From: Myxococcales bacterium
GTDB lineage: Bacteria > Myxococcota_A > UBA9042
DNA length: 40,671 bases
Reading direction: 5' to 3'
Assembly: GCA_037441385.1 (NCBI GenBank)
Contig: JBBISH010000053.1
Location: 1-40,671 of the forward strand
The notes beneath the pieces are model-generated. The model made no database searches, was not told where the DNA came from, and was given only the letters and a program-made list of their open reading frames with translations. Of the stretch, positions 1,141 to 32,476 are shown one piece after another. The first letter of the stretch is position 1. The number at the start of each line of letters is the position of its first letter. Made by a program: the position numbers and the translations under genes.

Positions 1141-2478
1141 ATGCGCGAGAGCAAGCCAACCCGAAGCGGGCCGCGCCGCGAGCCGGCGACCGGGGCCGTG
1201 CTGCGCGAGCGGGCCCTGCGGGCGCTGCTCGCTGTGGACTTGCAGGAGCTGGGCAGCCAGGCCGCCCTGAACCAGGCTCTGGCGGCCGAGCCGCCGCTGC
1301 CGCCGAACGACCGCCGCCTGTGCACCGAGCTGGTCTACGGCGTCTTGCGCCGCCAGCGCGCCCTGGACCGCTGGATCGCGCCGGCCTGCCAGCGCGGCCT
1401 GTACGACATGGCGCCAGCGGTACTGGTCGCCCTGCGGCTGGGCGCCTATCAACTCTGCGAGCTGCAACGAGTTCCAGCCTATGCCGCCGTGGACGCCACC
1501 GTCGAGGCCTGCAAGACCACGCCCGAATTCCCAGCCAAAGCGCTCGGTTTTGTGCACGCCGTCCTGCGGCAGCTGGCCCGCCAGAGCGCCGAAGGCCACC
1601 TGCCGGACCGCGACGATCTGCCGCCCTGGATCGATCAGCGCGTGGCCGATCTGGCGCGCGACCTGCAACTGGACACGGACGCGCTCCGCCAGGCCTTTCA
1701 GGGGATGGCGCCCCTGCACCTGCACGCCCTGACTCCCCATGGCTTTGCTGGCCTACGCAAAAGCGGCATCCCGTTGGTCGATCTGACGGTCCCGGGCACT
1801 GTGCAGGCCCCGGCAGAGGCCCTGCACCATCCTGATTTTGCCAAACATTTTGTCGCCCAAGACGCCGCCAGCGCCGCGATCACCGAGTGGCTGGAGCCGC
1901 GACCCGGGCAAGCGGTGCTGGAGGTGGCGGCAGGGCGCGGCGTCAAATCGGCGTGCATGGCCGCGGCGGGTGCACAGGTCACCGCCCTGGACCTGGCGCC
2001 GGCCAAACTTGCCGAGGCCTCCGAGCTTGCGCGGCAGTTGGGATCGCCGCTGCACCAGACGTTGGCGGCCGACGCGACCCAACCACTGCCCTTGGGGGAT
2101 GCGCAGTTCGACGCCGTGCTGGTCGACGCGCCCTGCAGCGGCCTGGGCACTCTGCGCCGGCGGCCCGAGATCCGCCACCGCCGCCGCGCCGCCGATCTGG
2201 TGGGTCTGGCGCAGATCCAAGATCAAATCGCCGATCAAGCGGCCCGCCATGTCCGCCCAGGCGGCACCTTGCTCCTCGCCACGTGCTCGATCGCCGCCGA
2301 GGAGGGCCCGCAGTGGTGCCAGCGCTTCATGATCAAGCACCCGGAATTCAAGCTAGATCCCGGGGTGCTCCCGTGGCTGCAGCCGCTGCTGACCGGCCCT
2401 GGATGGCTCCGCACGCACCCGCTACAAGACGGCATGGACGGCTTCTTTGCCGCCCGCCTGCGCCGCGACGCAAAATAA
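1141..2478 (+). CDS. rsmB: 16S rRNA m5C967 methyltransferase RsmB/Sun (NusB-like N-domain plus SAM-dependent MTase)
   Basis: 'DRRLCTELVYGVLRRQRALD' and 'LRLGAYQL' (NusB-like); 'QDAAS', 'FDAVLVDAPCSGLGTLRRRPEIR', 'ATCS', 'DGFFAARL'. Confidence 0.9.
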   Translation: MRESKPTRSGPRREPATGAVLRERALRALLAVDLQELGSQAALNQALAAEPPLPPNDRRLCTELVYGVLRRQRALDRWIAPACQRGLYDMAPAVLVALRLGAYQLCELQRVPAYAAVDATVEACKTTPEFPAKALGFVHAVLRQLARQSAEGHLPDRDDLPPWIDQRVADLARDLQLDTDALRQAFQGMAPLHLHALTPHGFAGLRKSGIPLVDLTVPGTVQAPAEALHHPDFAKHFVAQDAASAAITEWLEPRPGQAVLEVAAGRGVKSACMAAAGAQVTALDLAPAKLAEASELARQLGSPLHQTLAADATQPLPLGDAQFDAVLVDAPCSGLGTLRRRPEIRHRRRAADLVGLAQIQDQIADQAARHVRPGGTLLLATCSIAAEEGPQWCQRFMIKHPEFKLDPGVLPWLQPLLTGPGWLRTHPLQDGMDGFFAARLRRDAK

Positions 2479-2565
2479 TTCGAACAATTTTTCGCCGGAG
2501 CCGCGGCAAAAGTTGCCGCCGGATCGATCACCAAGTTGGGCACCGCGTTGCCCAGCAAGGAAGCC

Positions 2566-3567
2566 ATGATCGTTTCGGACGAAGCCACAGCAGCCAACAT
2601 CCCTGGATTCTTGCCGATCTGGCAGCAAGCACGCCGTGCGGGCTGGCACCACAGCCTGGCTGTGCGCGGGCGTTGGCCCCAAGCGACCGCCATCGCCGTG
2701 ATCGGTAGCCGCAACGCCGGCCGCGAGCAACTCCGCTGGGCGCACTGGTGCGGGCAGGTCTTGGCCGAGGCGGGCGCTTGTGTGGTCAGCGGCGGCGCAC
2801 TGGGCGTGGACTGCGCTGCGTTGAAGGGCGCCCTGGACGGCGGCGGCGAGCCCCTGGCGATCCTGCCGGCGCCCCCAGAACGGCCGATTCCGCCTCAGCA
2901 TGCGCCGGTCTACGCGCAGATCCTCCAGGCGGGCGGTGGCGTGGTGGGCCTGGCCGATGTGGGGTCGAGCTTGCCGCTGTGGGCCTTCTTGCGGCGCAAC
3001 AAGCTCATCGCGGCCACGGTGCAGGGCGTGATCGTGGTCTGCGGCGAGCAACCGAGCGGGACCGCCAAGGCGGTGAACTCCGCGATCGGACTGGGTCTGC
3101 CGGTGGCCTGCCCGCGGTGGTCCGAGCCGTCGCCACGGCGAGCGCTGAACGAATACCTGCTGCAACATCAAGCGCATCTCCTCACCACTGCCGAGGATCT
3201 GCGCGACTGGCTCCAGGCCGTCGCCCAAGGAGAGGCAGCTCGGCCGGACTCGGCGCACCCGCCGCGGACCGTGGCCCCCCGTGCGGTGCGGCGGCCCCAA
3301 GTCACGCCCCATATGGTTGACTCCGAGCCGCTGCCACGGCAAAGCTACCGGCCCGGCGCGGCGTCCATGCAGCCGCCCGCCGGTTTGGATCCCGACCAGC
3401 ACGCGCTTTGGCAGTGGCTGGCGCAAGAGGATCGCAGTGATTTTGAGGGCATGGTCGCGGCTCTGCCCCTGGGGCGGCCGCGGCTGGGCGCAGCGGTGCT
3501 GGGGCTGACCCTAGCGGGCTACCTGCGGCAAGGCAGCGATGGCTGCTACGCCCTGACAGTCGGCTAG
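2566..3567 (+). CDS. dprA: DNA-processing protein DprA/Smf
   Basis: 'IAVIGSRNA', 'VVSGGALGVD', 'FLRRNKLIA', 'SGT' and a winged-helix-like C-terminal tail; adjacent to topA (conserved linkage). ATG 2566 follows AAGGAAG; alternative TTG at 2536. Confidence 0.85.
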   Translation: MIVSDEATAANIPGFLPIWQQARRAGWHHSLAVRGRWPQATAIAVIGSRNAGREQLRWAHWCGQVLAEAGACVVSGGALGVDCAALKGALDGGGEPLAILPAPPERPIPPQHAPVYAQILQAGGGVVGLADVGSSLPLWAFLRRNKLIAATVQGVIVVCGEQPSGTAKAVNSAIGLGLPVACPRWSEPSPRRALNEYLLQHQAHLLTTAEDLRDWLQAVAQGEAARPDSAHPPRTVAPRAVRRPQVTPHMVDSEPLPRQSYRPGAASMQPPAGLDPDQHALWQWLAQEDRSDFEGMVAALPLGRPRLGAAVLGLTLAGYLRQGSDGCYALTVG

Positions 3568-3587
3568 ACGAGCAGCAAACCAGGGCC

Positions 3588-6500
3588 GTGGCAGCAGAAG
3601 AGGACGGGATGGTCAAGGCGCAAGCGACAGGCGAAAAGCAAGATACCAAGCGAGGTTCGGGCACATCCAAGTCCGCGGCCCCGCTGCGCACACTGGTGAT
3701 CGTCGAATCGCCCACCAAGGCCAATACGATCCGCAAATACCTGGGCGACGGCTACGAGGTCGAGGCCTCGGTCGGCCACGTGCGCGATCTGGTCGAGCGC
3801 AAGACCGATTTGCCCGAGGGCGACCCGCGCCGCGATCAAAAATGGGTCAAGTACGGCGTCAACATCGACAACGGCTTTGTCGAGCTGGAGGAAGCGTACA
3901 TCGTCCCGCCCGAAAAGCAGCGCCAGGTCACGGCCTTGCGTCAGCAGCTCAAGAAGTGCGACCAGCTCTTTCTGGCGACCGACGATGATCGCGAGGGCGA
4001 GGCGATCTCGTGGCACTTGCTGCAGGTGCTGCAACCCAAGGTGCCGGTACAGCGCCTGGTGTTTCACGAAATTACGCGCGAGGCGATCCGCGACGCCGTG
4101 GAGCACCCGCGCGCGCTGAACGAGCACCTGGTGTCGGCCCAGCGCACCCGCCGCGTGGTCGACCGGCTGTACGGCTGGGACGTGTCCGAGCTGTTGTGGC
4201 GCAAGATCAAGCCGGGCTTGTCGGCCGGCCGGGTGCAGTCCGTGGCCCTGCGCATGCTGGTCCAGCGCGAGCGCGAGCGGATGGCGTTCGTCTCGGCCGA
4301 TTGGTCCAGTGTCCACGCCAACTTGCTGCACAAGGGCGACGGCTTCGAGGCCACGCTGCTGCAAGTCGCGGGCAAGCGCGTGGCCAACGGCCGCGACTTC
4401 GATGCCACCACCGGCCAGCGCAAAGGCGATGCGGTCCACTTGGATCAGGCGGCGGCGCAGGCCCTGGTGCAGCGGCTGCGTGGCCAGATGATCCAGGTCA
4501 GCCAGATCGAGAAGAAGCCGCAGACCATGCGGCCCGCACCGCCGTTTACCACGTCGACGCTGCAGCAAGAAGCCAACCGCAAGCTGCGCTGGCCGGCCCG
4601 CCAGACCATGCAAGTGGCTCAGCGGCTTTACGAAAACGGCTTCATCACCTACATGCGTACCGACTCGGTCAACCTGTCGGATCAAGCGGTAGGCGCCGCC
4701 CGCAACCTGATCCGCGATCAGTACGGCGCCGCCTACCTGCCCGAAAAGCCGCGCCGCTACCAGACCAAGGTGGCCAATGCCCAAGAGGCCCACGAGGCGA
4801 TCCGTCCCGCCGGCACCGAGTTTCCCTCGCTGACCGACGTCGCCCGCGCCGTGGGTCAAGACGAGGCCAAGCTCTACGAGCTGATCTGGAAGCGCACCGT
4901 CGCCAGCCAGATGGCGGACGCGCTGCTGGAGCAGACCTCGGCGGACCTGAAGGTGCTGGACTGCTTGCTGCGCGCCACCGGCCGCGTCACTCGCTTCGCC
5001 GGCTACCTCAAGGCGTATGTCGAAGGGTCCGACGATCCCGAGCAGGCTCTGGCCGACCGCGACGCCGAGCTGCCGGCGCTGGCGGTGGGCGACCGGCCCG
5101 CCTGGGGCAATCCGGACTTGCGGGCCGAGAGCCACACGACTCAGCCGCCGGCGCGCCTGAACGACGCGACCCTGGTGCGGGCCCTGGAAGAGGCCGGCAT
5201 CGGCCGCCCGTCGACCTACGCGGCGATTCTGCAGAACTTGCTCGACAAGGAATACTGCTTCCGCCGCGGTCAGGCGCTGGTGCCCACCTTCATGGGCATC
5301 GCCGTGGTTACGCTGCTCGAAAACCACATGCCGCACTTGGTCGACTACGCCTTTACGGCCAAGATGGAGCAGCGGCTGGACAAGATCGCCAGCGGCGAAG
5401 ACGACTTCTCGAATTACCTCAAGGGTTTTTACATCGACGGTATCGTCGCCGGCGGCCACAAGGTACCCGGCCTGCGCTCGCTGCTGGCCGAGGTGAAGGA
5501 CCGCATCGATCCGGCTCTGGCCAGCGCCATCCCGGTCGGCACGGACGACGAGGGCACGCCGGTGCAGGTCCGCATCGGGCGTTACGGCACCTTCGTCAAA
5601 ATCGGCGAGCGCACCGCGAACGTGCCCGACACCGACGCGCCCGACGAGATGACAGTCGCCCGCGCCCAACAGCTGGTGGAGCAAAAGGCCAAGGGCGACG
5701 CGCCGATGGGCTTCGATCCCGAGTCGGGCCGGCCGGTCTTCTTGCGCAACGGCCGCTTTGGCTGGTACCTGCAGCTGGGGGCGGCCGACGAGCCGGCCGA
5801 GAGCAAGAAGAACTCAAGCCTTTCCAAGGGCATGGAGCCGGGCCAGGTCGACCTGACGCTGGCCCTGCGGCAGCTGCAGTTGCCGCGGACCCTGGGCAAG
5901 GACGGCGCCGATCGCGAGATCACCGCCCATGCCGGCCGCTACGGCGACTACGTGCAGCGCGGCGACGACCGCCGCAACCTGCCGCCTGGGCGCTGGGCCA
6001 TCGACGTGACCTTGGCCGAGGCCGTGGCGCTGCTGGACAAGCCGCGCGGGGCCCTGGGCCGCGAACACCTGGTCGATCTGGGTACGCTGGCGGATGGAAC
6101 CGTGGTCGGGCTGTGGAGCGGCCGCTACGGCCTGTACGTCACGGACGGCACTCGCAACGCCACGGTCAAGGTGCCGCTACCCGGCGGTGCCAAGCCCGAG
6201 GAAATGAGCGTAGAGGCGGCGGTCGCACTGCTGGACGCGGTCGCTGCCGCCAAGGCCGGCCGCGAACTGGGCCTGGACCCCGAGTCGGGGCAGATGGTGC
6301 GGGTGCTGGACGGGCGCTTTGGCCCCTACGTGACCAATGGCGCGCTCAACGCCAGCCTGGCGCGCGGCACCCTCGCGACCGACCTGACGCTAGAGGGCGC
6401 CCTGGACCGCCTGCGCCACTTTGGCAAACCGGCCAAGGCCAAGAAGGGCAAGGGCGCGGCCAAGAAGACGACCGCTAAGGCCGAAGCGCCGGCCAAGAAG

Positions 6501-6680
6501 ACCGCGACGGCTGCCAAGTCCACGACCACCAAGGCCGCCAAGCCGGCTGCGGCCAAGAAAGCGCCCGCCAAGAAGGCCGCTGCCGCCCAAGCGCCGGCCG
6601 CCAAGCCTGCGCCCGAACCAACGCCCGCGCCGCTGCCCAAAAGCAAGACTGGCATCATCCGTCGCAAGGCTGCCAGCTAG
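3588..6680 (+). CDS. topA: DNA topoisomerase I (type IA) with C-terminal GR[YF]G repeats and a Lys/Ala-rich tail
   Basis: 'LVIVESPTKA', 'ATDDDREGEAISWHL', 'SAGRVQS', catalytic 'GFITYMRTDS', 'AQEAHEAIRP', 'GIGRPSTYA'. Alternative start ATG 3609. Confidence 0.97.
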   Translation: MAAEEDGMVKAQATGEKQDTKRGSGTSKSAAPLRTLVIVESPTKANTIRKYLGDGYEVEASVGHVRDLVERKTDLPEGDPRRDQKWVKYGVNIDNGFVELEEAYIVPPEKQRQVTALRQQLKKCDQLFLATDDDREGEAISWHLLQVLQPKVPVQRLVFHEITREAIRDAVEHPRALNEHLVSAQRTRRVVDRLYGWDVSELLWRKIKPGLSAGRVQSVALRMLVQRERERMAFVSADWSSVHANLLHKGDGFEATLLQVAGKRVANGRDFDATTGQRKGDAVHLDQAAAQALVQRLRGQMIQVSQIEKKPQTMRPAPPFTTSTLQQEANRKLRWPARQTMQVAQRLYENGFITYMRTDSVNLSDQAVGAARNLIRDQYGAAYLPEKPRRYQTKVANAQEAHEAIRPAGTEFPSLTDVARAVGQDEAKLYELIWKRTVASQMADALLEQTSADLKVLDCLLRATGRVTRFAGYLKAYVEGSDDPEQALADRDAELPALAVGDRPAWGNPDLRAESHTTQPPARLNDATLVRALEEAGIGRPSTYAAILQNLLDKEYCFRRGQALVPTFMGIAVVTLLENHMPHLVDYAFTAKMEQRLDKIASGEDDFSNYLKGFYIDGIVAGGHKVPGLRSLLAEVKDRIDPALASAIPVGTDDEGTPVQVRIGRYGTFVKIGERTANVPDTDAPDEMTVARAQQLVEQKAKGDAPMGFDPESGRPVFLRNGRFGWYLQLGAADEPAESKKNSSLSKGMEPGQVDLTLALRQLQLPRTLGKDGADREITAHAGRYGDYVQRGDDRRNLPPGRWAIDVTLAEAVALLDKPRGALGREHLVDLGTLADGTVVGLWSGRYGLYVTDGTRNATVKVPLPGGAKPEEMSVEAAVALLDAVAAAKAGRELGLDPESGQMVRVLDGRFGPYVTNGALNASLARGTLATDLTLEGALDRLRHFGKPAKAKKGKGAAKKTTAKAEAPAKKTATAAKSTTTKAAKPAAAKKAPAKKAAAAQAPAAKPAPEPTPAPLPKSKTGIIRRKAAS

Positions 6681-9442: not shown

Positions 9443-10498
9443 CTATTTCGCCTTGTACTGAACCACCACCTTCGACCCAGGCTTGGGCGGGTGGACAAAG
9501 GTCATGGTCTGGCCCTTCAGCGTCCAGGTCAGCGTCGGATCCTCTGGCGTGACCGTGACTTTCACCGTATCAGGCTGCGGCATGGCGCTGAGGACCGCCA
9601 CCTTGATGCCTTCGCGCACGCGCTGGCCGATGCTGGTCAGGGTGGGGCCGTAGTCGGGCGCGCAGATGCTGCCGACCGTACCGCCCGATTTTGTCGCAAA
9701 TTCATTCAGGAGCGTGCCGTAGTGCGCGCCAATCGTCGACGCCGTCGCCAGGCAAGCCTTGTCGCCCGGGATGACGATCAAGCCAAAGCCCGTCATCGCT
9801 TTTTGCGCACCAAAGGCCTTGTCGACCGCGGCGCGCACCTGAAGGTAGGTATCGGCGCTGCTCCCACCGTCGCTGGCCTCGTCCTCGTTGCTCAAGATGA
9901 TGACGACCAAGTCGGCGTCGGCGCGGAAGAAACCCGCGTTGTCGGTCGCGCGCCGGTCGATGGCTTCGATGGTCGCCCGCAACGGCCGCTCGTCGGTCGA
10001 AGGGCAGACGTCGCCACAACTCCAAGTCTCTTCGCGGACGATGGTGTCGGCAAACAGTTTGGTGGCGTTGGCCGTGGTCGGGGTCAGGATGCGATGGTGG
10101 CTGGCGTCGAACTCGAGCAGCCGGCCCTTGAGGCCGTACTTGCCATCCGACACGTCCGTGGTCGTGACCCCGATCTGCCAGTCGATCTTGGCCAGGCTCC
10201 CCAAGAAAGTTTGCAGGCGTTCCGCCAGCTTTTCTTGGGCGTTGCGCATCGAGTCCGAATTGTCGTCGATGAACAACACGTCCACTCGGGCGCGCGTCTC
10301 GAACTCATCGTAGATGAACGTGTCCTGGGTGCGGCCGTCGGGCAACTTCACGGTGCTTTGCGCCGTCGTCGTGGCCAATTGTTGGTTTTCGCCAGGCATG
10401 CCGTCGGTGCAACTCCAACTCGTCGCCAGCGCCAGCGCGGTGCACCACCCCCAAACCCGCCTGCCGCGACCCTTGGCCCCGGCTATCCCAACGTTCAT
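9443..10498 (-). CDS. Exported/lipo-protein with VWA-like domain
   Basis: Hydrophobic N-terminus ending 'SWSC'; 'VDVLFIDDNSDSM', 'WQIGVTTTD', 'VIILSNEDE', 'GSIC..DY'; GGAGG SD before ATG 10498. Confidence 0.75.
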   Translation of the reverse strand: MNVGIAGAKGRGRRVWGWCTALALATSWSCTDGMPGENQQLATTTAQSTVKLPDGRTQDTFIYDEFETRARVDVLFIDDNSDSMRNAQEKLAERLQTFLGSLAKIDWQIGVTTTDVSDGKYGLKGRLLEFDASHHRILTPTTANATKLFADTIVREETWSCGDVCPSTDERPLRATIEAIDRRATDNAGFFRADADLVVIILSNEDEASDGGSSADTYLQVRAAVDKAFGAQKAMTGFGLIVIPGDKACLATASTIGAHYGTLLNEFATKSGGTVGSICAPDYGPTLTSIGQRVREGIKVAVLSAMPQPDTVKVTVTPEDPTLTWTLKGQTMTFVHPPKPGSKVVVQYKAK

Positions 10499-10627
10499 GT
10501 CGACCTCCGTGCGCGGTAGGTTGCCGGCGCGCGGCAATTGGTTCTCCCCTTGGCTCCGATCGGTAGGGGATCAAGAGCCACGGCGCGGACTGCTCCGGCG
10601 ACCGGTCCGACGTGGGCCAATTCGCGA

Positions 10628-12304
10628 TCAGTACAACTTCGCCAAGGTTGCGCCTGCGTAGTAGTGTAGCAGGATTTCCTCAAACTTCTGCCCCGCCTTG
10701 GCCCGCGCCACCGCGCCCGTCTGGTCCATGCCAACGCCATGGCCAAAACCGGCACCCACAAAGGTCCAAGACTGCGGCACGCCATCCTTGCTGGGCCCAG
10801 CTTTGATCAGGACTAGCGACGACCGCAGCCCCTTGGGACCGTGCGAGCCGCCCAGGGCGTCGCGGATCCGCAGTTCGCCTTCGACCTTGATCACACTGCC
10901 GTCGCTTTGCAGCACGTCCAGGGCGATCACCCGGCCCGAGACACCGCGCCGCACCACCGTCAGGGCCTTGACCGGCTTCTGCACACCAAAGCGCTTGAGC
11001 TGACCGGCCAGCTCGTCGGCGCTGCGCTCGGTCCGCCAACGGCAGGCCTCGGCGTTCAGGCCCGAGGCTGCAGCCCAGCTCGAATCCTTGCCTTCCAGCA
11101 GCTGCCGCACCGCGTCTTCGCTCGGGCCGCCCGCCAGCACGTCTTGAGCCCCTGCCACCACATCGGCGCGCCCGCGCAGCGCCGGCTGCGGCCGCCCCGG
11201 CCACACCAGCTCGTTGTTTTCGGTGTGGCCGCCCGAAACCGCGTGGTAGTAGGCGTCGACGAGCCGCCCCTCGCTGTCGACCAGCACCTGCCCGCGTGTG
11301 TCCTGCACGGCCTGGGCAATCCGCGGACTCACCCGCTCCAGCCCGCGGTAGGCCTGGCAGTGCACTTCGGAGCAAATCGCAAAGGGGTCCGTGGCGTGGC
11401 GCGTCCCCACCTTGGCCAGCATGTCCGTGCGGGCCGCCACCGCTTGAGCGCGCAGGGCCGCGTCGGGGGCCGAGTGAAAAATCTCGGACGCCACCACGCC
11501 TTCCAGCACGTTCTCCAAGTCCGCCTCGTTTACCACCTCTAGCCCTTGCCGCCCCGCGACCACGTAGACTCGCCCCGGCAGATCCAGCTCACTGCGCCCG
11601 CCCTTGCGGAGCCCCGTCACCGTGAGCGCCGCCGCCTTGCCCGACGGACGCTGCGCCTCGAACCACAGCACATCGCGGGCATGGACTTCTACGCTCGAAC
11701 CTCCCCGCTCGCGCAGTACCAACTCGGCGCTGGGCGGGGCCGCCACCACTTGCTGGAGCCCCAGGTCCACGTTGAAATGCCGGCCGATCTCTTGCGCTTT
11801 GGCCGCCGCGGCTTCGGCGTCGGCAAACTCCTGGTCCAAGCATAGCAGCGTTTGGCGGGTGTCGAACATGCGCCCGGCCAGGCTGTAGGTGGTGCCTGTG
11901 CCTTGGGCGACCACGGCAAAACCCCGCTCTTTCCAGGTCGTTTTTTGGGCGCGTAGGGTCTCGAAGTCCCACGCGGGCGCTTGGGCCAGGACCACAAAAT
12001 GCTTGACTTCTCCCGGTTTGGCCGCTGTCGCGGTCAGCTCGATGGCGCGCCCCGGCGGCAGACGGATGTCGACTTGGCCGTCGCCCGTCCCCAGCACGCG
12101 CAAGCCCGTGCCCGCGCTGATTTCCACGTGATCTTGGGCCGACAGCACGCTGAGGGGCAACAGGGGCTTGCCGCCGTCGCCGACCCGCAGCACGTCGCGG
12201 TACAGGCTGGCAGCGCGGTCGTCGTGGCCCAGCGGGTCGGCCCACACAGGCGCAGCGACAAGCAGGAACCCAAGAAACAGCAAGGCAAAGCGGCGCGGCG
12301 ACAC
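10628..12304 (-). CDS. SpoIID/LytB-domain peptidoglycan hydrolase, exported
   Basis: Signal peptide (VWA-D); 'LEGVVASE', 'ALRAQAVAART', 'HCQAYRG', 'YYHAVSGGHTE', 'GAGFGHGVGMDQTGA', 'ILLHYY'. Confidence 0.9.
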   Translation of the reverse strand: MSPRRFALLFLGFLLVAAPVWADPLGHDDRAASLYRDVLRVGDGGKPLLPLSVLSAQDHVEISAGTGLRVLGTGDGQVDIRLPPGRAIELTATAAKPGEVKHFVVLAQAPAWDFETLRAQKTTWKERGFAVVAQGTGTTYSLAGRMFDTRQTLLCLDQEFADAEAAAAKAQEIGRHFNVDLGLQQVVAAPPSAELVLRERGGSSVEVHARDVLWFEAQRPSGKAAALTVTGLRKGGRSELDLPGRVYVVAGRQGLEVVNEADLENVLEGVVASEIFHSAPDAALRAQAVAARTDMLAKVGTRHATDPFAICSEVHCQAYRGLERVSPRIAQAVQDTRGQVLVDSEGRLVDAYYHAVSGGHTENNELVWPGRPQPALRGRADVVAGAQDVLAGGPSEDAVRQLLEGKDSSWAAASGLNAEACRWRTERSADELAGQLKRFGVQKPVKALTVVRRGVSGRVIALDVLQSDGSVIKVEGELRIRDALGGSHGPKGLRSSLVLIKAGPSKDGVPQSWTFVGAGFGHGVGMDQTGAVARAKAGQKFEEILLHYYAGATLAKLY

Positions 12305-12401
12305 GGCGATCCGGGCTGCCCGACGCGGCGGGCGATCGCGCGCGAGTTAACGCATAACCCGGCGGTTTGTCCAGTTGCTGGCCGGTGACCGCCGACGCGG
12401 A

Positions 12402-12430
12402 TTGACGGCTTTGGGCGCCCCGCGTAGCCT
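12402..12430 (+). promoter_or_regulatory. Putative sigma70 promoter TTGACG-N17-TAGCCT; predicted +1 at or near ATG 12437 (leaderless)
   Basis: -35 at 12402-12407, 17-nt spacer, -10 at 12425-12430, then 6 nt before the ATG; no SD present. Confidence 0.6.
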
Positions 12431-12436
12431 GCCGGC

Positions 12437-14824
12437 ATGGCACGCACCGGTATTTCTGGACTTCCGCCCAATCGCCCGGTCGAAACGGCGCTGACCTATT
12501 TGCCCGGCATCTCGCGCTCGCGGGCCAAGTCGCTCCTGGCCGACGCGCGCATCGACCCGGATCTGTCCACCGACGAGCTCAGCGAGCTGCAAGTCGATCT
12601 GCTGCGCAACCTGATCCGCGCCGAGTTGGGCGCTCCGGCCGAGGCCAACGCACCCGTCCCCGATCGGCCGTGGCTCGCTGGCGCTGGCGCCGACCTGCAG
12701 CCCTACCTGGATCGCGTTCGCGCCATGCTGCAGCGCTATCTGGTCGTGTTGCGGCCGTGGGACCGCTCGACCGACGACGCCTCGCGCAACCCTCTGCCCG
12801 CCGGTGCCGCGCAAACCCTGGATACCACGTGCATGCGCTGCCTGCGCGGCGAGGCGCTGGACCCCGAGAAGGTGGCCTTCGTCGACCGCATGGAGGCGCG
12901 CCTGGCGGTGCGCTACGACGATCTGACCCCGGCTAGCGAAGCGGCGCAGCGGTTCGACGAACTGCGGGTGGTGTTCGGCCTGAGCGACCTGGAGTGCGAC
13001 CTGCTCTGGCTGCTGCTCGCGCCCGAGATCGCGCCGGAATTCCTTTGGCTTTACAGGGCATTATGGCGCGACACCGCCCGCGTCGCCTGGCCCGAGGACT
13101 TCTTGCAGCACGCCGCCGATCCGTTTGCCGTGCGCGGCAAGGCGGTGCTCGCGGCGGTGGCCGCCACGGCGACGCTGGTGCGGTACGGCTTGGTGTCGGC
13201 TTCGGGCGACCTGGCCACCGGGCTGCGCTACCGGTCCGGTGCCTTTGTTCCCGGGCACTTGCTTGGCCTGCCGATCCGCTTGGACGACGTGCGCGGCCTG
13301 CTCTACCACCCGCACGGCGACTCTGATCCAGGCGACCGGTCGGCCACGCCGATGGCGCCCAGTCTGCGCGACGCCTTGACGCGCGGCTTCCGCAGCGGCC
13401 GGCGCTTCTTGGTCCTGGGCCCCGAGCGGGCGGGGGCCTTGGGGATCGCCCGGCAAGCGTTGGATACCTTTGGCGAAGGCCTGCTCGAAGTGCGCCTGGA
13501 CGTGCTGCTGGCGAACGGCAGCCTGGAGCAGGTGGGGCAGGTGCTGGGCCGGGCCCGGCTGGTGCGCGCCGGGGTGTTCTTCAGCGAAGTGCAGTCGATG
13601 GACGCGGGCGAGCACGGCGCCGAGCGCTTGGCGGCGCTGGTGCAATTGCTGCAACCCGAGACGACCACGATGTTCTTCCACGCGCGGGCGTCGCGGCGGA
13701 CCGAGGACCAAAAGCTCTCGCCCCGTGCACACTTGGCCCTGCTCCGCGAGCTGGGCTGCCTGGAACTGCCCACCGCACCGCCCAGCATCGACGAGCGCCG
13801 CGACCTGTGGCGCCAGCGCCTGACGGGCCGGATGGCCGACCGCGACGTGGACGACACGGTGCAGACGGTCAGCGTGTTCAAATTCGGCGTGGACGAGATC
13901 GACCTGACCATCAACCTGGCCCAGGCGGTGTCGCGGCAGCGCGGCCTGGCCGCCACGGTGCACTTGACCGATGTCGAGCGCGCCGTCCGCGACGTGGCGA
14001 GCTCGCGGCTGTCGGGCCTGGCCACCCGCATCAACGTGCGCGGCCGCTGGGAAAACACCATCTTGCCCGACGATACCCGTGACACCCTGCGCGAGATGGT
14101 GCGCTTTGGCAAACACGCCGGCTTTGTCCTGGACGAACTGGGCTACGGCCGCACCATGGGCTATGGGCGGGCATTGACCGCCATGTTTTCGGGCCCTTCG
14201 GGCACGGGCAAGACGCTGTGCGCCGGCCTGGTGGCGCGCGACCTGGGCCTGGAGCTGTTCCGCGTCGACCTGGCCAGCGTGGTCAGCAAGTACATCGGCG
14301 AGACCGAAGAGCGCCTGAGCAAGCTGTTCGACGCCAGCCAAGACGCTGGCATCGCGCTGCTTTTTGACGAGGCCGATTCATTGTTCGCCAAGCGCACCGA
14401 TGTGCAAAGCTCGGTGGACCGCTACGCCAACCTGGAAGTCAACTACTTGCTGCAGCGCCTGGAAGATTTTGACGGCGTGGTCATCTTGACCACCAACAAC
14501 CCGGAAAGCATCGACAACGCCTTCTTGCGCCGCATCCGCTTCAAGCCCAGCTTCCCGGCGCCCGAAAAGTCCGAACGCGAGCGGCTGTGGTCCGTGATGA
14601 TCCCCGCCGATGCGCCGCGCGAGCTCGACTTGAAATTCAAGGACCTGGCCGCCGACTACGAACTGACCGGCGGTCAGATCCAAAACGCGGTGATCCGCGC
14701 GGCGGTGTGGGCGGCCGAAGAGACCAAACCCATCAGCTACACGCACTTGGCCCGGGCCGCCGAGCGCGAATACAAGGACGCCGGCCGCGTGGTGCGGCAG
14801 TACGCAGACGATCCGGCGAGCTAG
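12437..14824 (+). CDS. AAA+ ATPase (Pvc15/Afp15-like) with an N-terminal ribosomal protein S13-like H2TH domain
   Basis: Walker A 'GPSGTGKT', Walker B 'LLFDEAD', 'KRTDVQSSVDRYANLEVNYLLQRLEDFDGVVILTTN', 'AFLRRIRF', 'LTGGQIQN'. Degenerate first AAA module ('LGPERAGA'); 'FGLSDLECDLLWLLLAPE' winged-helix-like segment. Residues 1-60 resemble S13. Confidence 0.9.
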   Translation: MARTGISGLPPNRPVETALTYLPGISRSRAKSLLADARIDPDLSTDELSELQVDLLRNLIRAELGAPAEANAPVPDRPWLAGAGADLQPYLDRVRAMLQRYLVVLRPWDRSTDDASRNPLPAGAAQTLDTTCMRCLRGEALDPEKVAFVDRMEARLAVRYDDLTPASEAAQRFDELRVVFGLSDLECDLLWLLLAPEIAPEFLWLYRALWRDTARVAWPEDFLQHAADPFAVRGKAVLAAVAATATLVRYGLVSASGDLATGLRYRSGAFVPGHLLGLPIRLDDVRGLLYHPHGDSDPGDRSATPMAPSLRDALTRGFRSGRRFLVLGPERAGALGIARQALDTFGEGLLEVRLDVLLANGSLEQVGQVLGRARLVRAGVFFSEVQSMDAGEHGAERLAALVQLLQPETTTMFFHARASRRTEDQKLSPRAHLALLRELGCLELPTAPPSIDERRDLWRQRLTGRMADRDVDDTVQTVSVFKFGVDEIDLTINLAQAVSRQRGLAATVHLTDVERAVRDVASSRLSGLATRINVRGRWENTILPDDTRDTLREMVRFGKHAGFVLDELGYGRTMGYGRALTAMFSGPSGTGKTLCAGLVARDLGLELFRVDLASVVSKYIGETEERLSKLFDASQDAGIALLFDEADSLFAKRTDVQSSVDRYANLEVNYLLQRLEDFDGVVILTTNNPESIDNAFLRRIRFKPSFPAPEKSERERLWSVMIPADAPRELDLKFKDLAADYELTGGQIQNAVIRAAVWAAEETKPISYTHLARAAEREYKDAGRVVRQYADDPAS

Positions 14825-14846
14825 CCTGGCCGCAACAGAGGACGCA

Positions 14847-15116
14847 ATGGAGAAGACTACGTTCATGGCCATCTTGGCGATCATCGTCGAAGGCTTCGAG
14901 GATCCGAATTTCAAGGCAGAGTTTGCCAAGGCCAAGGCCAGCGGCGACGTGCCGGCCATGATGGCGCTGCCGATGGCCATTCAAGAGCGCGCCTTTGGCG
15001 CCCACGGCCTGGACGCCGCTAGCGGTTCGGCCAAGTTCAAGGAAGCGGGCCGCAGCTACGGGCTGGATCCCGACGTGGCGCCGTGGTTGGCGCGCATGAA
15101 GGCGGCGCTGGGCTGA
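14847..15116 (+). CDS. Small helical protein (89 aa) resembling eukaryotic protein C10 (C12orf57/GRCC10)
   Basis: GAGGA SD and GC-rich third codon positions support the CDS. The C10 similarity is a by-eye alignment to a recalled sequence. Confidence 0.7.
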   Translation: MEKTTFMAILAIIVEGFEDPNFKAEFAKAKASGDVPAMMALPMAIQERAFGAHGLDAASGSAKFKEAGRSYGLDPDVAPWLARMKAALG

Positions 15117-15124
15117 GCTGCAAC

Positions 15125-15314
15125 GCCGGCAACGCGACCAAAATCCACCCGCGAAATTGGCCCTGGCCGTCGATTTGGGATGCAAATCAAGGCGCAAGGA
15201 GCGGAGCGACTGAGGCGACCTAGAGGTCGCCGCAGGGAGAGTAGTGACGCAGCAAGGCCGAGTTGCGCCCAAAGCGGCGGATCGGGGGCGGGCGGTTTCG
15301 TTGACAGTGCCGGC
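15125..15314. repeat. ~190-bp imperfect palindromic element (MITE/REP-like)
   Basis: Central hairpin GGCGACC-TAGA-GGTCGCC (15214-15231); arms CCGTCGATTTGGG / CCCAAAGCGGCGG (11/13); ends GCCGGCA / TGCCGGC. Confidence 0.65.
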
Positions 15315-15329
15315 CCCCGCGCATACGCT
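15301..15329 (+). promoter_or_regulatory. Putative sigma70 promoter TTGACA-N17-TACGCT
   Basis: Perfect -35, 17-nt spacer and TAnnnT -10; ATG 15337 lies 7 nt downstream. Confidence 0.65.
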
Positions 15330-15336
15330 TTGAGGG

Positions 15337-16623
15337 ATGGTCGGCCCCAAGCCCAATCTGCCTGCCTTTTTATCGCCCGCACCGGCGCAAGCCCCTGCGA
15401 CCAGACTGCAGACCATGCGCAAGACTTTTGCCCGCCAGATCGCCTGGTTCACCATCCTGGCATTTGGCATGGCGACGGCGCTGGCCGGCTGCGGCGGCGG
15501 TTTGTCCGACGTGACGTTGGGCAAGCCCGTACCCGAGGTGGCGACCCCGGCCCGCTACTCCGCGGCCCTGCGGCTGGCGGCCCTGGCCCGGGTCGAAGCC
15601 CGCGGCGGAGCCGACGAAGTGGCCGCCGAACACTTCCGCGCCGCCTACCGCAAATACCCCGACGTCAGCTTCCTCATCGGCTACGCGCGCAGCGCCGAGC
15701 GCGCCAAGCTGTATGCCGAAGCCCACGACGCCCTGCGCCGCGCGCTGAGCCACGAACTGACCGCCGAAGAACGGGGCCAGCTGGAAGCCGAGGTCGCGCG
15801 TCTGGCGCCGCTGGTGCCACCGGGTCTGGTGCGGGTGGCCCTGCAGGTCGCGCCCGAAGGCACTCGCGTGGAGTTGACCCGCCAACAACCCGGCGAGTCT
15901 GCGGGCGATCCGCGCAAGAACAGCAAGCGCGCCGCCGACCGCATCGCCCTGGGCACCGGTTGGCTGTACTTGGCGCCGGGCTCGTATGCCGTCTACAGCG
16001 CCTCCAAGGGCTACCAAAGCGATCTGCGAACCCTGCAGGTCACGGCCGAGAGCGCGGACCTCATGGCGATCGCCCTGGCGGCCGAAGACGCGGCGCCGCA
16101 GCTGGTTGACACGACCCGCCCCAAGACCAAGACGCCAGACCACGTCGAGCCCGACGTCAAGCAGCCCGATCAGGGGCCGGTGGTCGAGTTCGAGGACCGG
16201 CCCAAAGTCCGCCGCAGCCCGCTGCATACGCTGGGTCCCGTGGTGCTGAGCGCGCTGGGCGTGTTGGCGGTGGGCGCCGGTGGCTACTTCGGTTGGCAGG
16301 CGAGCCAAAACGCGTCCCTGGCCAACGACTTGTCCAAGGGGTCGGCGTCTTACCAGAGTCAGTTCGATACCTACCATCAAGCGGTGTTGGACAACGCCAA
16401 CCTGGCCAACTACGCCTTTATCGGCGGTGGCGCGCTGGTGGCACTGGGGTCGCTGTGGTGGCTGCTGGCGCCCTCGGCCAAGGCCACGCAAGCCGTCGCG
16501 TCGCCCGCAGAGGGGCCTGCAGCTGCGGGCCATTCCAGCTGGCCAACGCTGAGCCTGCCGCAAGTGGGCCTGTCGCCGGTTGGCACCTCCCCGCTCGGGG
16601 TGTCGTTGCAGTGGCCGCTATGA
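15337..16623 (+). CDS. TPR/PEGA-like exported membrane protein (myxobacterial type)
   Basis: Lipobox 'LAGC'; TPR-like helices 'AAEHFRAAY...AEAHDALRRAL'; PEGA-like 'VAPEGTRVEL...LAPGSYAVYSASKGY'; two C-terminal hydrophobic segments. Alternative start ATG 15415. Confidence 0.75.
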   Translation: MVGPKPNLPAFLSPAPAQAPATRLQTMRKTFARQIAWFTILAFGMATALAGCGGGLSDVTLGKPVPEVATPARYSAALRLAALARVEARGGADEVAAEHFRAAYRKYPDVSFLIGYARSAERAKLYAEAHDALRRALSHELTAEERGQLEAEVARLAPLVPPGLVRVALQVAPEGTRVELTRQQPGESAGDPRKNSKRAADRIALGTGWLYLAPGSYAVYSASKGYQSDLRTLQVTAESADLMAIALAAEDAAPQLVDTTRPKTKTPDHVEPDVKQPDQGPVVEFEDRPKVRRSPLHTLGPVVLSALGVLAVGAGGYFGWQASQNASLANDLSKGSASYQSQFDTYHQAVLDNANLANYAFIGGGALVALGSLWWLLAPSAKATQAVASPAEGPAAAGHSSWPTLSLPQVGLSPVGTSPLGVSLQWPL

Positions 16624-28864: not shown

Positions 28865-28928
28865 ACTTGGGCCGGCAGCGCCGCTGCAATGCCTACTTGG
28901 GCCGGCAGCGCCGCTGTTATGCCTACTT
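28865..28928. repeat. 30-bp tandem duplication at the rne 3' end
   Basis: ACTTGGGCCGGCAGCGCCGCTG(CA/TT)ATGCCT twice (28865-28894, 28895-28924), followed by ACTT. Confidence 0.9.
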
Positions 28929-31802
28929 TGGGGTGCGCAAGTCGATCACGAAACGCTTGGAAACGCTTGGCTTCTCGCTGGGCGCTGCCACCGGCGGCAG
29001 GGCTGGCGGGGCCGCGACCTCGGCCACCGGAGCCTGCTCGCCCAAGACCTTGGCGATCTCAGCCTGCATCAGCAGGCGCGCGTCCACGGCTTCTTCGGCC
29101 GGAGCGGGCTCTGCCGTCTGAGCCGCGATCACCGGCGGGTGCATCGGCAGGGCGACCTCAATCCGTGCGGTGGCCTCGGGGTCGTCGTCGACCGCGGCAG
29201 TGGCGGCCTCGACCGGTGCCGTTGGCTCGGCCGCTGCGACTTGCTCCGCAGGCTCCATCTGGGCCGTAGGCTCGCTCGCCGTCTGCGTTTCCGCAGGCTC
29301 GGACGCAGCTTCGGCGACCTGGGCAAGCTGGGCCGGGTCGGCGGCTACCTCGCCCGCAGCAGTTGCCGTCTCGGCCGCCTCGGCGCCGGCACCGTCGTCG
29401 TCTTCGGTGTCCGCGCCCTCGTTGGCCAGATTCGCTTCACCGCGATCGGCGCCCCCACCACGGCGGCGACGGCGACGGCGGCGGCGCCCCTCGCTGCTGT
29501 TGGCCTCGCCTGCGGCGTCGTCCGCCCCGGCCGGAGCCTCGGCCTTGGTGGGCGCAGCTTCGGCAGCTTCGACCGCGGGCCGAAGCTCAGCCTTGGCGGC
29601 ATCGATCTTGGCCGTCTCTGCGACTTCGGAGGGCTTTTCGCTGTTCCGCTCGCCGCGCTCCCCGCGCTCGGGTCGTTCGCCGCGCTCGGGGCGCTCACTG
29701 CGCTCGGGTCGTTCGCCGCGCTCGGGCCGCTCACCGCGCTCAGGCCGGTCGGCGCGGGCCTCCTGCCGATTCTCACGCGGTTCGCGCGGCTCGCGGCCGT
29801 CGCGCCGATCGCGGCGATCACGGCGATCGCGGTCCGGCCGGCGCTCGCGCCCCTCAGAAGGCGTCTCCGCCGCGGCGGTTTCGCTCTCGGCCGCCGGTTT
29901 GGCGGCGGGCTTGGGCGCGGTCAGGGCCGCGGTAGGCTCGGGCGCCGGGATGACGCGCGGAGGCTGCGGCGCCGGGCCCATGCCGAACAAGCCCTTGAAC
30001 CAGGCCATGATCCCACGCGGCGGCGGCGCGTCTTCCACTTCCACGTCCACGATCTGACTCGGCGCGGCGGCCACCGGCTCTTGGGCGGCCACCTCGGCGG
30101 CGTGGCTGGCGGTGCGGCGCGGCTGGCGGGCCGGAGCCTCGCTCTCGATCGGCGCCATCGCCCGAACTTCCTTGTAGATCTCGGTGTAGTCCACCTTGGC
30201 GCCGCGCTTGGCTACGGCGGCCTCGATGGCCATCTTGGTCTCTTCGCGGTGGATCAGGTGATTGCGCACCAAGTCCATCTCTTGCGTCACGCGCAGGAGC
30301 TTCTGGCGGTCGGCGCGCTCGGCGCCGTTTTCCACAGGGATTTCCTCCAGGTGCTCGATGATGACCTGGGTGGATGGCATGTCCTGCACCGGGATCACTT
30401 CGATGGTCAGGTGGTACTGCTTCTCCACCCCGGCCAGCTCGGCGCGCCGCGCATTGAGCAGGTAGCGGGCGCTGGCCGCCGGCACCGTGGCGATGATGTA
30501 CTTGACGCGCTTTTGCGAGACCAGCTCGTAGATACGGCGCAGCACGCTCATCGCCACGGACTCGAACGAGCGCATGCGCCCCGTGCCCGAGCAGTGGACG
30601 CAGGCATCAAAAGTGCCCTTGTTCACGCTGGATTTGATGCGCTGGCGGCTCATCTCGAGCAGGCCGAATTCGCTGATGTGGCCCAGCTTGGTGCGCGCCT
30701 TGTCGTTCTTGAAGGCGTCTTTCAGGGCCTGTTCGACCTCGCGCACGTACTTCTTTTCGCGCATGTCGATGAAGTCGATGACCACGAGGCCGCCCATGTC
30801 GCGCAGCATCAGCTGGCGGGCGATCTCCTCGGCGGCCTCGATGTTGGTGGCGCGCGCGGTCTCTTCGATGTCTTTTTCTTTGACGCGACCCGAGTTGACG
30901 TCGATCGCCACCATCGCCTCGGTCTGGTCGATGACGATCGAGCCACCGGACGGCAGGTAGACCTGACGGGCGAACACGTCCTCGACCTTGCCTTCGATGC
31001 CGTAGCGGGCAAACAGCGGCATGTCGCCGGCGTAGCGCTGCACATGCGCCAGGCTGCGCGGCATCAGAACCGAAAGGAATTCTTGGACTTCGTGCAGGGT
31101 CTCGTCGTCGTCGATGACCAGCTCGTCGATGTCCTTGGTAAAGTAGTCGCGCACGAACCGCACGGCCAGGCTGCGCTCGGCGTACAGCAGGGTCGGACCC
31201 TTGGACTCATCGAATTTCTTGGTGATCGACTCCCACTGCCGGGTCAGGTACAGCAGGTCCTTGGCCAGCTCGGTCTCGGTCGCGGTCTCGCCGGCGGTGC
31301 GGACGATCAGGCCAAAGCCGTCCGGGACCTTCATGGTCTCGGTCAGCTTCTTGATGCGATCGCGGGCTTCGTCGCTCAGCTTGCGCGACACCCCCGCCTT
31401 GTCCTTGTCGCTCTCTGGAATCAGCACCAGGTAGCGGCCGGGCAGCGAGATGAAGGTCGACAAGGTCGCGCCCTTTTGGCCGATCTCGTCGCGCACCACC
31501 TGCACCAAGACCTCTTGGCGGGCCTTGATCAGCTCCTGGATCGGCGCTTTTTTGTCGTCGTTCTTGGCGCGCAGCTTGGGGTGGATCTCGCCCACCGGCA
31601 AGAAGCCCTGCTTGTCGTTGCCAAAATCGACAAAGGCCGACTGCAGCGACGGTTCGACCCGGGCGACCTGGGCGCGATAGATATTGCCTTTGCAGGTGTT
31701 GCGAGCGACGGGCTCGATCTCTAGATGGACGAGCTGGCCGTCTTCGATGACTGCGGCGCGCGACTCGTCGCGGTCGACACTGATAAGCATACGCTTGGAC
31801 AT
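28923..31802 (-). CDS. rne: Ribonuclease E (Rne/Rng family with long disordered C-terminus)
   Basis: 'KGNIYRAQVARVEPSLQSAFVDFG', 'SLPGRYLVL', 'LPSGGSIVIDQTEAMVAIDVNSG', 'GGLVVIDFIDM', Zn-link 'CVHC'; Arg- and Glu-rich CTD; GGAG SD before ATG 31802. Confidence 0.95.
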   Translation of the reverse strand: MSKRMLISVDRDESRAAVIEDGQLVHLEIEPVARNTCKGNIYRAQVARVEPSLQSAFVDFGNDKQGFLPVGEIHPKLRAKNDDKKAPIQELIKARQEVLVQVVRDEIGQKGATLSTFISLPGRYLVLIPESDKDKAGVSRKLSDEARDRIKKLTETMKVPDGFGLIVRTAGETATETELAKDLLYLTRQWESITKKFDESKGPTLLYAERSLAVRFVRDYFTKDIDELVIDDDETLHEVQEFLSVLMPRSLAHVQRYAGDMPLFARYGIEGKVEDVFARQVYLPSGGSIVIDQTEAMVAIDVNSGRVKEKDIEETARATNIEAAEEIARQLMLRDMGGLVVIDFIDMREKKYVREVEQALKDAFKNDKARTKLGHISEFGLLEMSRQRIKSSVNKGTFDACVHCSGTGRMRSFESVAMSVLRRIYELVSQKRVKYIIATVPAASARYLLNARRAELAGVEKQYHLTIEVIPVQDMPSTQVIIEHLEEIPVENGAERADRQKLLRVTQEMDLVRNHLIHREETKMAIEAAVAKRGAKVDYTEIYKEVRAMAPIESEAPARQPRRTASHAAEVAAQEPVAAAPSQIVDVEVEDAPPPRGIMAWFKGLFGMGPAPQPPRVIPAPEPTAALTAPKPAAKPAAESETAAAETPSEGRERRPDRDRRDRRDRRDGREPREPRENRQEARADRPERGERPERGERPERSERPERGERPERGERGERNSEKPSEVAETAKIDAAKAELRPAVEAAEAAPTKAEAPAGADDAAGEANSSEGRRRRRRRRRGGGADRGEANLANEGADTEDDDGAGAEAAETATAAGEVAADPAQLAQVAEAASEPAETQTASEPTAQMEPAEQVAAAEPTAPVEAATAAVDDDPEATARIEVALPMHPPVIAAQTAEPAPAEEAVDARLLMQAEIAKVLGEQAPVAEVAAPPALPPVAAPSEKPSVSKRFVIDLRTPK

Positions 31803-32476
31803 CGGATACTCCGACGCCGCGGCGCACGCAACCGCAGCAAAGGGCCCGCGCAAGTGTCCGTACTGCCGCCCGTCACCCTTGTGACCTGGCGGACAGCGCG
31901 GTGGCGCAAGCCTCGCGTGTGGGGTCGCAATCGGCACTCCGCCTTCGCATACGTCTTGCGGCGGCGCGCCAGCGGGCGAGCTGCACCTACCCAGTCCAGC
32001 GGGCCGAGCAGGCCAAGGCCGCCGAGCCACAGGACCAGGTTCATCAAGAAGTACTTGGGGTACGGAGATTCCCAGGAGCGCGGTGGCCGCAGAGCTTCGT
32101 GCCGGTCACTTGGGTCGGAGGCGGTCGAATCTGCAGGGCACACCCGCTCCCCAAGGGGCGTGGCGCTGGCGCACATCGACGGCACCCGTGCGCGCGTCGG
32201 CAGTCTGCCGGACAGCTTCGCAGGGGTGACTTGCCCAAAGACCATGTTGGCTTCGAAGTTCCGCGCGGCCTTCGCCGTCGCATCTGCAAGCTGCATCCCG
32301 GCTGCGTGCGCGCCGGTTGCGCTTGGGTTGTCGACCGGTCCGCCAGCCCGGCACAACCCAGGGGCCGCGCCAGACTGCCGAATCATTCAGTTGCAGCGTC
32401 GCGCTGGACCGGAAGAACCGTCTACGCCTCGCGCTGCGCGACAGGACGCGCCCGGCGACCTGCCATCAACCCAGCT

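Follow-up and report, generated by a model that had tools for sequence, protein, structure and literature searches.

Classical AAA+ proteins use their N-terminal domains to bring in substrates or adaptors. In eukaryotes, ribosome biogenesis and quality control depend on the AAA+ unfoldases Rix7/NVL, Drg1/Afg2, Rea1 and Cdc48, and we know of no bacterial equivalent of these ribosome-directed enzymes. Ribosomal protein uS13 (RpsM) is a free-standing protein of about 115-125 amino acids (aa) encoded in the rpsM-rpsK cluster. [quoted passage not shown] The protein is described as a secondary assembly protein of the 30S head that is contacted by bL31 (PMC10931766), and as forming bridges B1a and B1b/c with H38 and uL5 (PMC4721500). 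In part of its text, a 2024 review of extraribosomal functions of ribosomal proteins mentions uS13 in passing. The cargo-loading ATPase Pvc15 of extracellular contractile injection systems (eCIS) is described as having a winged-helix-like N domain, a deviant first AAA domain (D1) and an active second one (D2), with an "(F/L)FDEAD" Walker B motif and an RR finger (PMC11495950). Here we report a gene predicted to join the N-terminal part of uS13 to a two-ring AAA+ ATPase. It is located at 12437..14824 on the + strand of a 40,671 nucleotide (nt) contig of a Myxococcales bacterium (JBBISH010000053.1, assembly GCA_037441385.1), which in its full length is referred to as the window.

A uS13 module at the N terminus of an AAA+ ATPase

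The open reading frame (ORF) encodes 795 aa, and its first residues are exactly those quoted in a first-pass annotation made from the sequence alone. The open frame spans 798 aa. As it opens only three codons upstream of the ATG, Met1 is well defined. Residues 1-62 (12437..12622, +) correspond to the N-terminal, three-helix module of uS13 (a helix-two-turn-helix, H2TH), based on PF00416, TIGR03631, identity to E. coli S13, and fold. The first-pass annotation had marked 12437-12625, i.e., aa 1-63, which is this module.

PF00416 (Ribosomal_S13) matches aa 9-62 over profile positions 7-60 of 128. The match has an E-value of 7.3e-6 (26.9 bits) when the whole protein is scanned against Pfam, and of 1.6e-7 (32.2 bits, gathering score 31) when aa 1-75 are scanned alone. 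The NCBIfam model uS13_bact (TIGR03631) also matches (E 9.4e-9), at 35.7 bits against a cutoff of 130.45. By BLASTP, 23 of 58 residues (40%) are identical to E. coli K-12 S13, from Met1 and with no gaps (E 1e-12). Across 42 diverse S13s the module is homologous to the N-domain position by position from Met1, with 35-45% identity. A phmmer search of PDB sequences with aa 1-75 returned 62 distinct sequences at E<=1, of which the best 60 are all uS13 (top E 3.1e-8). No match to the module was found for the Fpg-type H2TH (PF06831), H2TH_5 or helix-hairpin-helix (HhH) families in Pfam at E up to 10, and NFACT_N overlaps it weakly (E 0.27). At the level of sequence, the S13 similarity of the N terminus is thus real and far beyond chance.

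We also searched 1.84 billion representative proteins with a profile built from 20 orthologous modules and obtained 940 matches at E<=1e-3. Among the best 150 of these, fragments of the family itself rank at the top and are followed by S13-length proteins (1e-10 to 1e-6). One predicted protein from this search (P0202, 219 aa) has both a complete S13 N-domain (PF00416 E 4e-16) and the first part of a DEAD-box helicase domain, and could be another S13-domain fusion or an artefact of assembly or gene calling.

The predicted structures point in the same direction. AlphaFold2 models of the full protein and of aa 1-310 have a mean per-residue confidence (pLDDT) of 70.7 and 66.4, respectively, and both contain the module helices 15-19, 27-37 and 50-64 at a pLDDT of about 80-85. 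When the aa 1-310 model was searched with Foldseek, uS13/S18 chains filled all 50 top rows. The local superpositions of the module are 0.6-0.8 Å over 52-54 columns (8cvo_N, 8buu_m, 8uu4_m), the best being 0.6 Å over 54. The global E-values are weak (at least 0.014) because only about 55 of the 310 residues match.

No other N-terminal part of the protein is as well conserved as the module, which apart from D2 is under the strongest constraint. Mean column identity among the 20 orthologs is 80% in the module and 68% over the whole protein, and 29 of 70 module columns are invariant. The residues kept from true S13s are M1, A2, R3, L9, P10, E16, L19, T20, Y21, G24, R27, A30, L34, I39, D40, P41, D42, L48 and R57. 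The net charge of the module (+0.9) is the same as that of true S13 N-domains (+0.95), which rules out the idea that the module is unusually acidic and for that reason not RNA-binding.

The C-terminal half of S13 is missing. We call its tail absent because the PF00416 match ends at profile position 60 of 128. In its place is an Ala/Pro/Gly/Asp-rich linker of about 18 aa (aa 63-80, 12623..12676, +), the length and sequence of which vary among orthologs. Residues 66-81 have a pLDDT below 50 in the full-protein model, and this stretch is disordered. Unlike uS13 itself, the module is therefore embedded in a 795-aa ATPase. These results bear out the first-pass annotation, which had aligned the N terminus to S13 by hand from Met1 without gaps (23/57 identical), had expected an S13/H2TH match there, and had proposed an in-frame fusion of the S13 N-terminal module to an AAA+ ATPase, with an Ala/Pro linker instead of the basic tail.

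The fusion is a conserved gene of one bacterial family

Full-length homologs of the fusion protein comprise 46 protein clusters (58-96% identity) from metagenome-assembled genomes (MAGs) labelled Myxococcales or Deltaproteobacteria. A precomputed PF00416 match exists for 30 of the 46, and some are called "ribosomal protein S13" by JGI. We then surveyed the genomes of 60 relatives, 36 of which belong to the family of the source genome (hereafter f1) and 24 to 13 other families of the class. Full-length orthologs, starting from residue 1, are encoded by 30 of the 36 other f1 genomes, and two more are cut at contig ends. No ortholog was found in the f1 genomes G008 (61% complete), G026 (94%), G028 (83%) and G034 (67%). 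The 24 genomes from other families have only paralog-level matches, which start at residue about 81 or later.

A search of a 301-genome sample of the phylum with the module profile gave a consistent picture. Among the matches listed, those with 120-144 bits lie in frames of 599-902 aa and occur in f1 only, and the remaining ones lie in rpsM-sized frames (122-184 aa) with at most 58 bits. In this sample the fusion is present in 21 of the 23 other f1 genomes and in the source genome (G000). The gene is almost always single copy.

The source genome is a MAG of 221 contigs, so we considered whether the fusion could be an assembly chimera or the product of a mis-called start, in which case no such protein would exist. 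The same architecture, however, appears in 46 independent clusters and in more than 30 separately assembled genomes. In addition, contigs from two samples cross the junction without a break. Over 12300-13500, a Logan contig (8435 nt) of the probable source run shows 0 differences from the window. A contig piece from another sample of that study, matching 12591-12798, spans the module, the linker and the body. The position of the frame opening, three codons before the ATG, and the strong purifying selection on the module also speak against an artefact, the probability of which we consider negligible. By its behaviour, the fusion gene is a vertically inherited core gene, in the vicinity of housekeeping genes (purA, a 2-hydroxyacid dehydrogenase gene and a Mur ligase gene).

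The first-pass annotation had allowed for a chimera at the junction and had suggested seeking the S13-AAA architecture in other genomes; the contigs and the orthologs above dispose of the former and supply the latter. It had also placed the gene outside any ribosomal operon, and the neighbours are indeed a SpoIID-like gene and an 89-aa gene, and an intact rpsM (121 aa, beside rpsK) lies elsewhere, on contig C2. Its remark that no S13-AAA+ fusion had been described stands for the open-access and bioRxiv literature, in which we found no paper on such a fusion, but not for public databases, where the architecture has already been annotated by machine.

A Cdc48-like body with a degenerate first ring

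The linker is followed by a helical and winged-helix N domain (aa 81-300, 12677..13336, +), which is matched by the Pfam family PF22977 ("WHD variant", where WHD is a winged-helix domain) over aa 91-258 (E 1.5e-8, 35 bits, cutoff 27). We found no papers on PF22977 in the open-access and bioRxiv literature. The D1 domain (aa about 305-540, 13349..14056, +) has a beta-alpha-beta core in the model and is degenerate. Its Walker A site reads GPERAGA, without the Lys, and there is no DE Walker B in any of the 25 aligned orthologs. The D2 domain and its lid (aa 541-795 and the stop codon, 14057..14824, +) match PF00004 over aa 583-703 (E 7.4e-26). Motifs GPSGTGKT, LLFDEAD, the pore loop KYIG, the sensor-1 TTN and the RR arginine fingers are invariant in 25 orthologs. 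D2 therefore has all the hallmarks of a classical-clade AAA domain, namely Walker A and B, the sensor-1 Asn, the arginine fingers of the SRH (second region of homology), and the aromatic pore loop.

The family profile matches the VCP-like ATPase (VAT) and Cdc48 at 1e-35 to 1e-34. In Foldseek, the full model resembles the tandem-AAA proteins p97/VCP, Cdc48, Pex1/6, Rix7, Drg1/Afg2, NVL and MSMEG_0858 over about 550 columns (E about 1e-12). Rix7, Drg1/Afg2 and NVL are among the closest solved tandem-AAA folds, and p97/Cdc48 score equally well. Judged from the model, the protein is a type II, two-ring AAA+ ATPase of the Cdc48/p97 type, with a dead D1, probably a scaffold, and a D2 with intact threading motifs. 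By analogy with these proteins it would be expected to form hexamers. It shares with the Cdc48/p97 type (including Rix7, Drg1/Afg2, NVL and MSMEG_0858) the D1-D2 tandem fold, the classical SRH, the pore loop and the arginine fingers, but differs in that its D1 lacks the Walker A Lys and the Walker B. Moreover, Cdc48 has a double-psi barrel N domain, whereas the protein reported here has a winged helix and the S13 module (about 18% identity).

Relatives of the ATPase body are widespread in bacteria and archaea, and the source genome has further copies without the S13 module. One of these, a 713-aa copy within C8:73000-92000, has a second AAA gene (503 aa) and a GNAT gene downstream. In comparison with the eCIS ATPases Pvc15/Afp15, the fusion has the additional S13 module and linker as well as a dedicated 89-aa neighbour, and is not part of an eCIS locus. 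Among the 25 ORFs of the window that were examined, none encodes an eCIS structural protein (sheath, tube, baseplate, Pvc16). Elsewhere in the source genome, Pvc16_N and sheath genes were detected on contig C198, and a second sheath match on C29. Given the presence of eCIS_core, Pvc16_N and sheath genes, the organism probably also has a contractile injection system.

The best named AAA model over the D2 core is IetA of the IetAS anti-phage system (NF042959; E 2.5e-26 in PADLOC and 2.9e-24 in NCBIfam). The match, however, reaches 85.9 bits against a cutoff of 510 and only covers aa about 540-775, and no IetS-like protease is encoded beside the fusion among the window ORFs. We rejected membership in a defence system, as only the generic AAA core was matched (IetA, TRIP13), far below the curated cutoffs of PADLOC and NCBIfam.

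The module was added to an existing ATPase

The resident rpsM of the source genome (121 aa), which adjoins rpsK, matches PF00416 over its full profile (1-128) with 115 bits, and its product is 30% identical to the module by BLASTP. The S13 N-domains of f1 share 23-32% identity with the module (mean 28%, n=24), and those of other families of the same class share 31-44% (mean 36%, n=21). Judged by these identities, the module was not copied recently from the resident rpsM. It carries T20, Y21, R27, D40 and P41, the residues that most S13s outside f1 have at these positions. The S13 of f1 has R/Q, S and P at the first three of them and for the most part differs at the last two. The pattern suggests that either the module was captured before these changes in f1 S13, or the donor was foreign. 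We also considered whether f1 S13 is relaxed or divergent as a whole. The PF00416 scores do not support this (106-115 bits for rpsM of f1 vs 98-115 bits in sister families), and only certain N-domain positions differ.

The nearest homologs without the S13 module are from sister families (32-36% identity). They start 8-26 residues before an invariant helix, YLxRVRxLVQRYL (aa 90-102 here, YLDRVRAMLQRYL). Since these homologs start near this helix, the module and linker are an N-terminal accretion on a pre-existing WHD-D1-D2 body, and the comparison indicates that the addition took place in one family-level lineage. The protein is a Cdc48-like WHD-AAA ATPase, of putative eCIS type, with a ribosomal-protein domain as a lineage-specific N-terminal module.

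One further homolog (L004, 37% identical) comes from a MAG labelled Deltaproteobacteria and has about 80 extra aa at its N terminus, an extension of similar length that is colinear with the module but resembles it weakly. We did not count it as a second fusion, given that hhalign aligned the extension to the module with a probability of 25% (E 7.5e-4) and no Pfam S13 match was found. The L004 homolog is a singleton cluster. At this locus (L004:5695-10603) two WHD-AAA genes are in tandem, and D1 of the first has a partial Walker A, GPSGTGA.

An 89-aa gene accompanies the fusion

A gene for an 89-aa protein (small89; 14847..15116, +) begins 22 nt after the ATPase stop codon. It adjoins the ATPase gene in 20 of 21 loci that bear the module, and in the remaining one (L102) the downstream flank measures only about 90 nt. 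Likewise, it adjoins the ATPase gene in all 13 loci with 8-kb flanks, in one of them inverted. The phyletic range of small89 equals that of the fusion, as it was detected in 22 of the 23 other f1 genomes and in the source genome, with one marginal partial match (E 3.8e-4) among the 277 genomes outside f1. No small89 was found near the S13-less relatives of the ATPase. In the source genome it is single copy. In G022, an f1 genome, both the fusion gene and small89 occur twice, on contigs C101 and C91, which could reflect duplication or mixed strains in the MAG.

In the protein collection, small89 accounts for 24 clusters, all of 88-90 aa and without a precomputed Pfam domain. In the ESM Atlas it resembles a cluster tagged as Protein C10 (PF14974), with a score of 0.93 and 230 of 256 features in common, and 19% of the members of that cluster carry PF14974. 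Two of seven small89 orthologs have nearly full-length but sub-threshold PF14974 matches (E 0.006-0.015), and the source small89 has none even at E up to 10. The PF14974 model searched over 61 genomes gave five matches, all of which are small89 genes, with 16.8-19 bits against a cutoff of 27. We take from this that small89 is possibly a distant relative of Protein C10, as a lead rather than as membership in the family. The human member, C10 (C12orf57), has been described as a small protein with five helices and of unknown function (PMC13478489). If the link is confirmed, it would provide a prokaryotic genomic context for a mainly eukaryotic family. A similarity of small89 to RtxH (E 0.01) was dismissed as noise. 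Complex prediction for the ATPase with small89 scored 0.00 and 0.01 against a mark of 0.32 and, run without controls, carries no weight either way.

Downstream of small89, the 13 loci share a gene for a 428-aa lipoprotein-like protein (p428; 10 of 13), one for a 1120-aa MopE-repeat protein (10 of 13) and a Mur ligase gene (12 of 13). The gap between small89 and p428 is about 220-300 nt, depending on the start codon of p428, so the two need not be co-transcribed. Upstream, the genes of the source locus are kept in none of the 13 loci, and other genera have purA, a 2-hydroxyacid dehydrogenase gene, or Big_5/FtsX-MacB genes at this position. A promoter and terminator scan of 12250-15450 was uninformative, with no promoter-like sites and with terminator-like sites only inside the ORF.

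Possible roles of the fused module

The first-pass annotation had suggested that the module targets the ATPase to RNA, ribosomes or DNA, or acts as an S13 mimic or decoy, and targeting is a reasonable proposal from homology. Given that N-domains of classical AAA+ proteins bring in substrates or adaptors, the module most plausibly sends the motor to the partners of the S13 head domain. In sister families the body occurs without the module, and such an N-terminal addition is what would be expected of a recruited targeting domain. The reading that we tentatively prefer, with somewhat less than even confidence, is that the module is a targeting handle and the ATPase a ribosome- or rRNA-directed remodeller. 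The hexamer would then display six S13 modules on flexible linkers of about 18 residues. These would attach the motor to the usual binding partners of the S13 head domain, and the docked motor may pull on a protein of that ribosomal particle. Candidate targets would be S13-free 30S assembly intermediates or free 50S subunits. In such a scheme the ATPase would be a bacterial ribosome-remodelling or quality-control factor, and small89 its putative cofactor or regulator. A bolder version, for which we see a rather low probability, would make the protein the first bacterial AAA+ machine dedicated to the ribosome, with a built-in ribosomal-protein domain that holds a place or serves for docking. 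Bound at the S13 site of 30S heads that are immature or damaged, or else at the uL5/bL31 face of free 50S subunits, it would extract a protein or a stalled chain. The fact that f1 S13 changed where the module preserves residues could allow the cell to distinguish both copies.

Several observations weigh against a role at the ribosome. In the module, the hairpin glycine of S13 (in GIG) is replaced by an invariant Ser (G26S) and IYG by LPG, and because of these substitutions the motif looks more like a generic HhH. The basic C-terminal tail of S13, which makes many rRNA and tRNA contacts, is absent from the fusion. Across the 13 loci, no gene for translation or rRNA recurs beside the fusion, and the RsmB and RNase E/G genes of the window are not syntenic with it in other genera (0 of 13). 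In the f1 genome G026 (94% complete), contig C33 encodes small89, the 428-aa protein and the MopE-repeat protein in this order, and no S13-AAA gene was detectable at that locus or elsewhere in the genome. Lastly, the layout of the body agrees with what has been published for Pvc15, a loader unrelated to ribosomes, and an eCIS_core/DUF4157 gene lies on the opposite strand near the S13-less 713-aa paralog of the source genome.

These points leave room for other explanations. The module could be a generic nucleic-acid handle that binds the backbone as an HhH/H2TH element and anchors the unfoldase on DNA or on an RNA that is not rRNA. The motor would then strip or remodel proteins bound to nucleic acids, and the ribosome would have no part in it. 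The LPG(I/V)S motif is HhH-like and fits this explanation, but the similarity is to S13 in particular and extends colinearly from Met1 across helix 3, the Fpg-type H2TH, H2TH_5 and HhH families gave no match at E up to 10, and the best 60 PDB sequences and 50 fold matches are all uS13. We think it on the whole unlikely, if worth keeping in view. Alternatively, the module may have lost nucleic-acid binding and act on proteins, as a regulator or decoy that binds small89, free uS19 or its own body (auto-inhibition), or as an S13 mimic that titrates an S13-binding factor. The missing tail, which in S13 contacts RNA, would agree with this, as would small89, which arose with the fusion, is adjacent to it, has an identical phyletic range and is found near none of the S13-less relatives. 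Furthermore, the module kept the ancestral residues at positions where f1 S13 has changed (20, 21, 27 and, for the most part, 40 and 41), which could mean a division of partners. G026, however, retains small89 without the ATPase, and the PF00416 scores of f1 rpsM are no lower than those of sister families, so S13 is not relaxed overall. An exclusively protein-binding role is, in our assessment, distinctly unlikely.

A Pvc15-like ATPase that unfolds or loads cargo, possibly the 428-aa and MopE-repeat proteins, would be a helper in envelope biology or secretion with the S13 module as a minor accessory. The fit of the body to the Pvc15 description, the paralog near an eCIS_core protein, and the retention of the block ATPase-small89-p428-MopE-Mur in 10 to 12 of 13 loci that span genera are in line with such a role. 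The module is nevertheless the best-conserved N-terminal part of the protein, a misfit for a minor accessory. There are also no sheath, tube or baseplate genes nearby (the Pvc16_N and sheath genes are on other contigs), and the 220-300 nt between small89 and p428 do not require co-transcription. This makes the explanation quite improbable.

If the ATPase is indeed directed to the ribosome or rRNA by its module, it would be a functional analogue of eukaryotic Drg1 or Rix7, or of the Cdc48 of ribosome quality control, which were thought to have no bacterial counterpart. A conserved Cdc48-like motor with an S13 head-binding domain as its sole lineage-specific addition is a concrete candidate for a bacterial ribosome unfoldase. 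Even with another target, the protein would be a clean natural case of a ribosomal-protein domain taken up as a targeting module, with a defined origin (one family), a partner gene born with the fusion, and S13-less sister proteins for comparison.

Other genes of the window

Adjacent to the fusion gene and divergent from it is a gene for a SpoIID-domain protein (10628-12304, -), next to which is a lipoprotein-like ORF (9443-10537, -). Neither is conserved beside the fusion in other genera. In part, the lipoprotein-like ORF matches a MIDAS-family adhesin of the Bdellovibrio type (E 6e-37, far below the cutoff) and CglD. Further upstream (1141-6680), genes for RsmB (16S rRNA m5C methyltransferase family), DprA and topoisomerase I are in a row. 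Downstream of the fusion, an RNase E/G gene is located at 28923-32030, and weak matches to it occur at differing positions in 3 of the 13 loci.

An ORF that runs off the end of the window (39242-40669, +) encodes bacterial TSP3 repeats (E 2e-45) and has a weak match (E 1.4e-6) to the Ca-binding domain of binary-toxin B/protective-antigen-type proteins. On another contig of the source genome (C12:27885-28271, L191), a 352-aa frame includes a partial NFACT_N match (profile positions 305-421 of 456, 37 bits).

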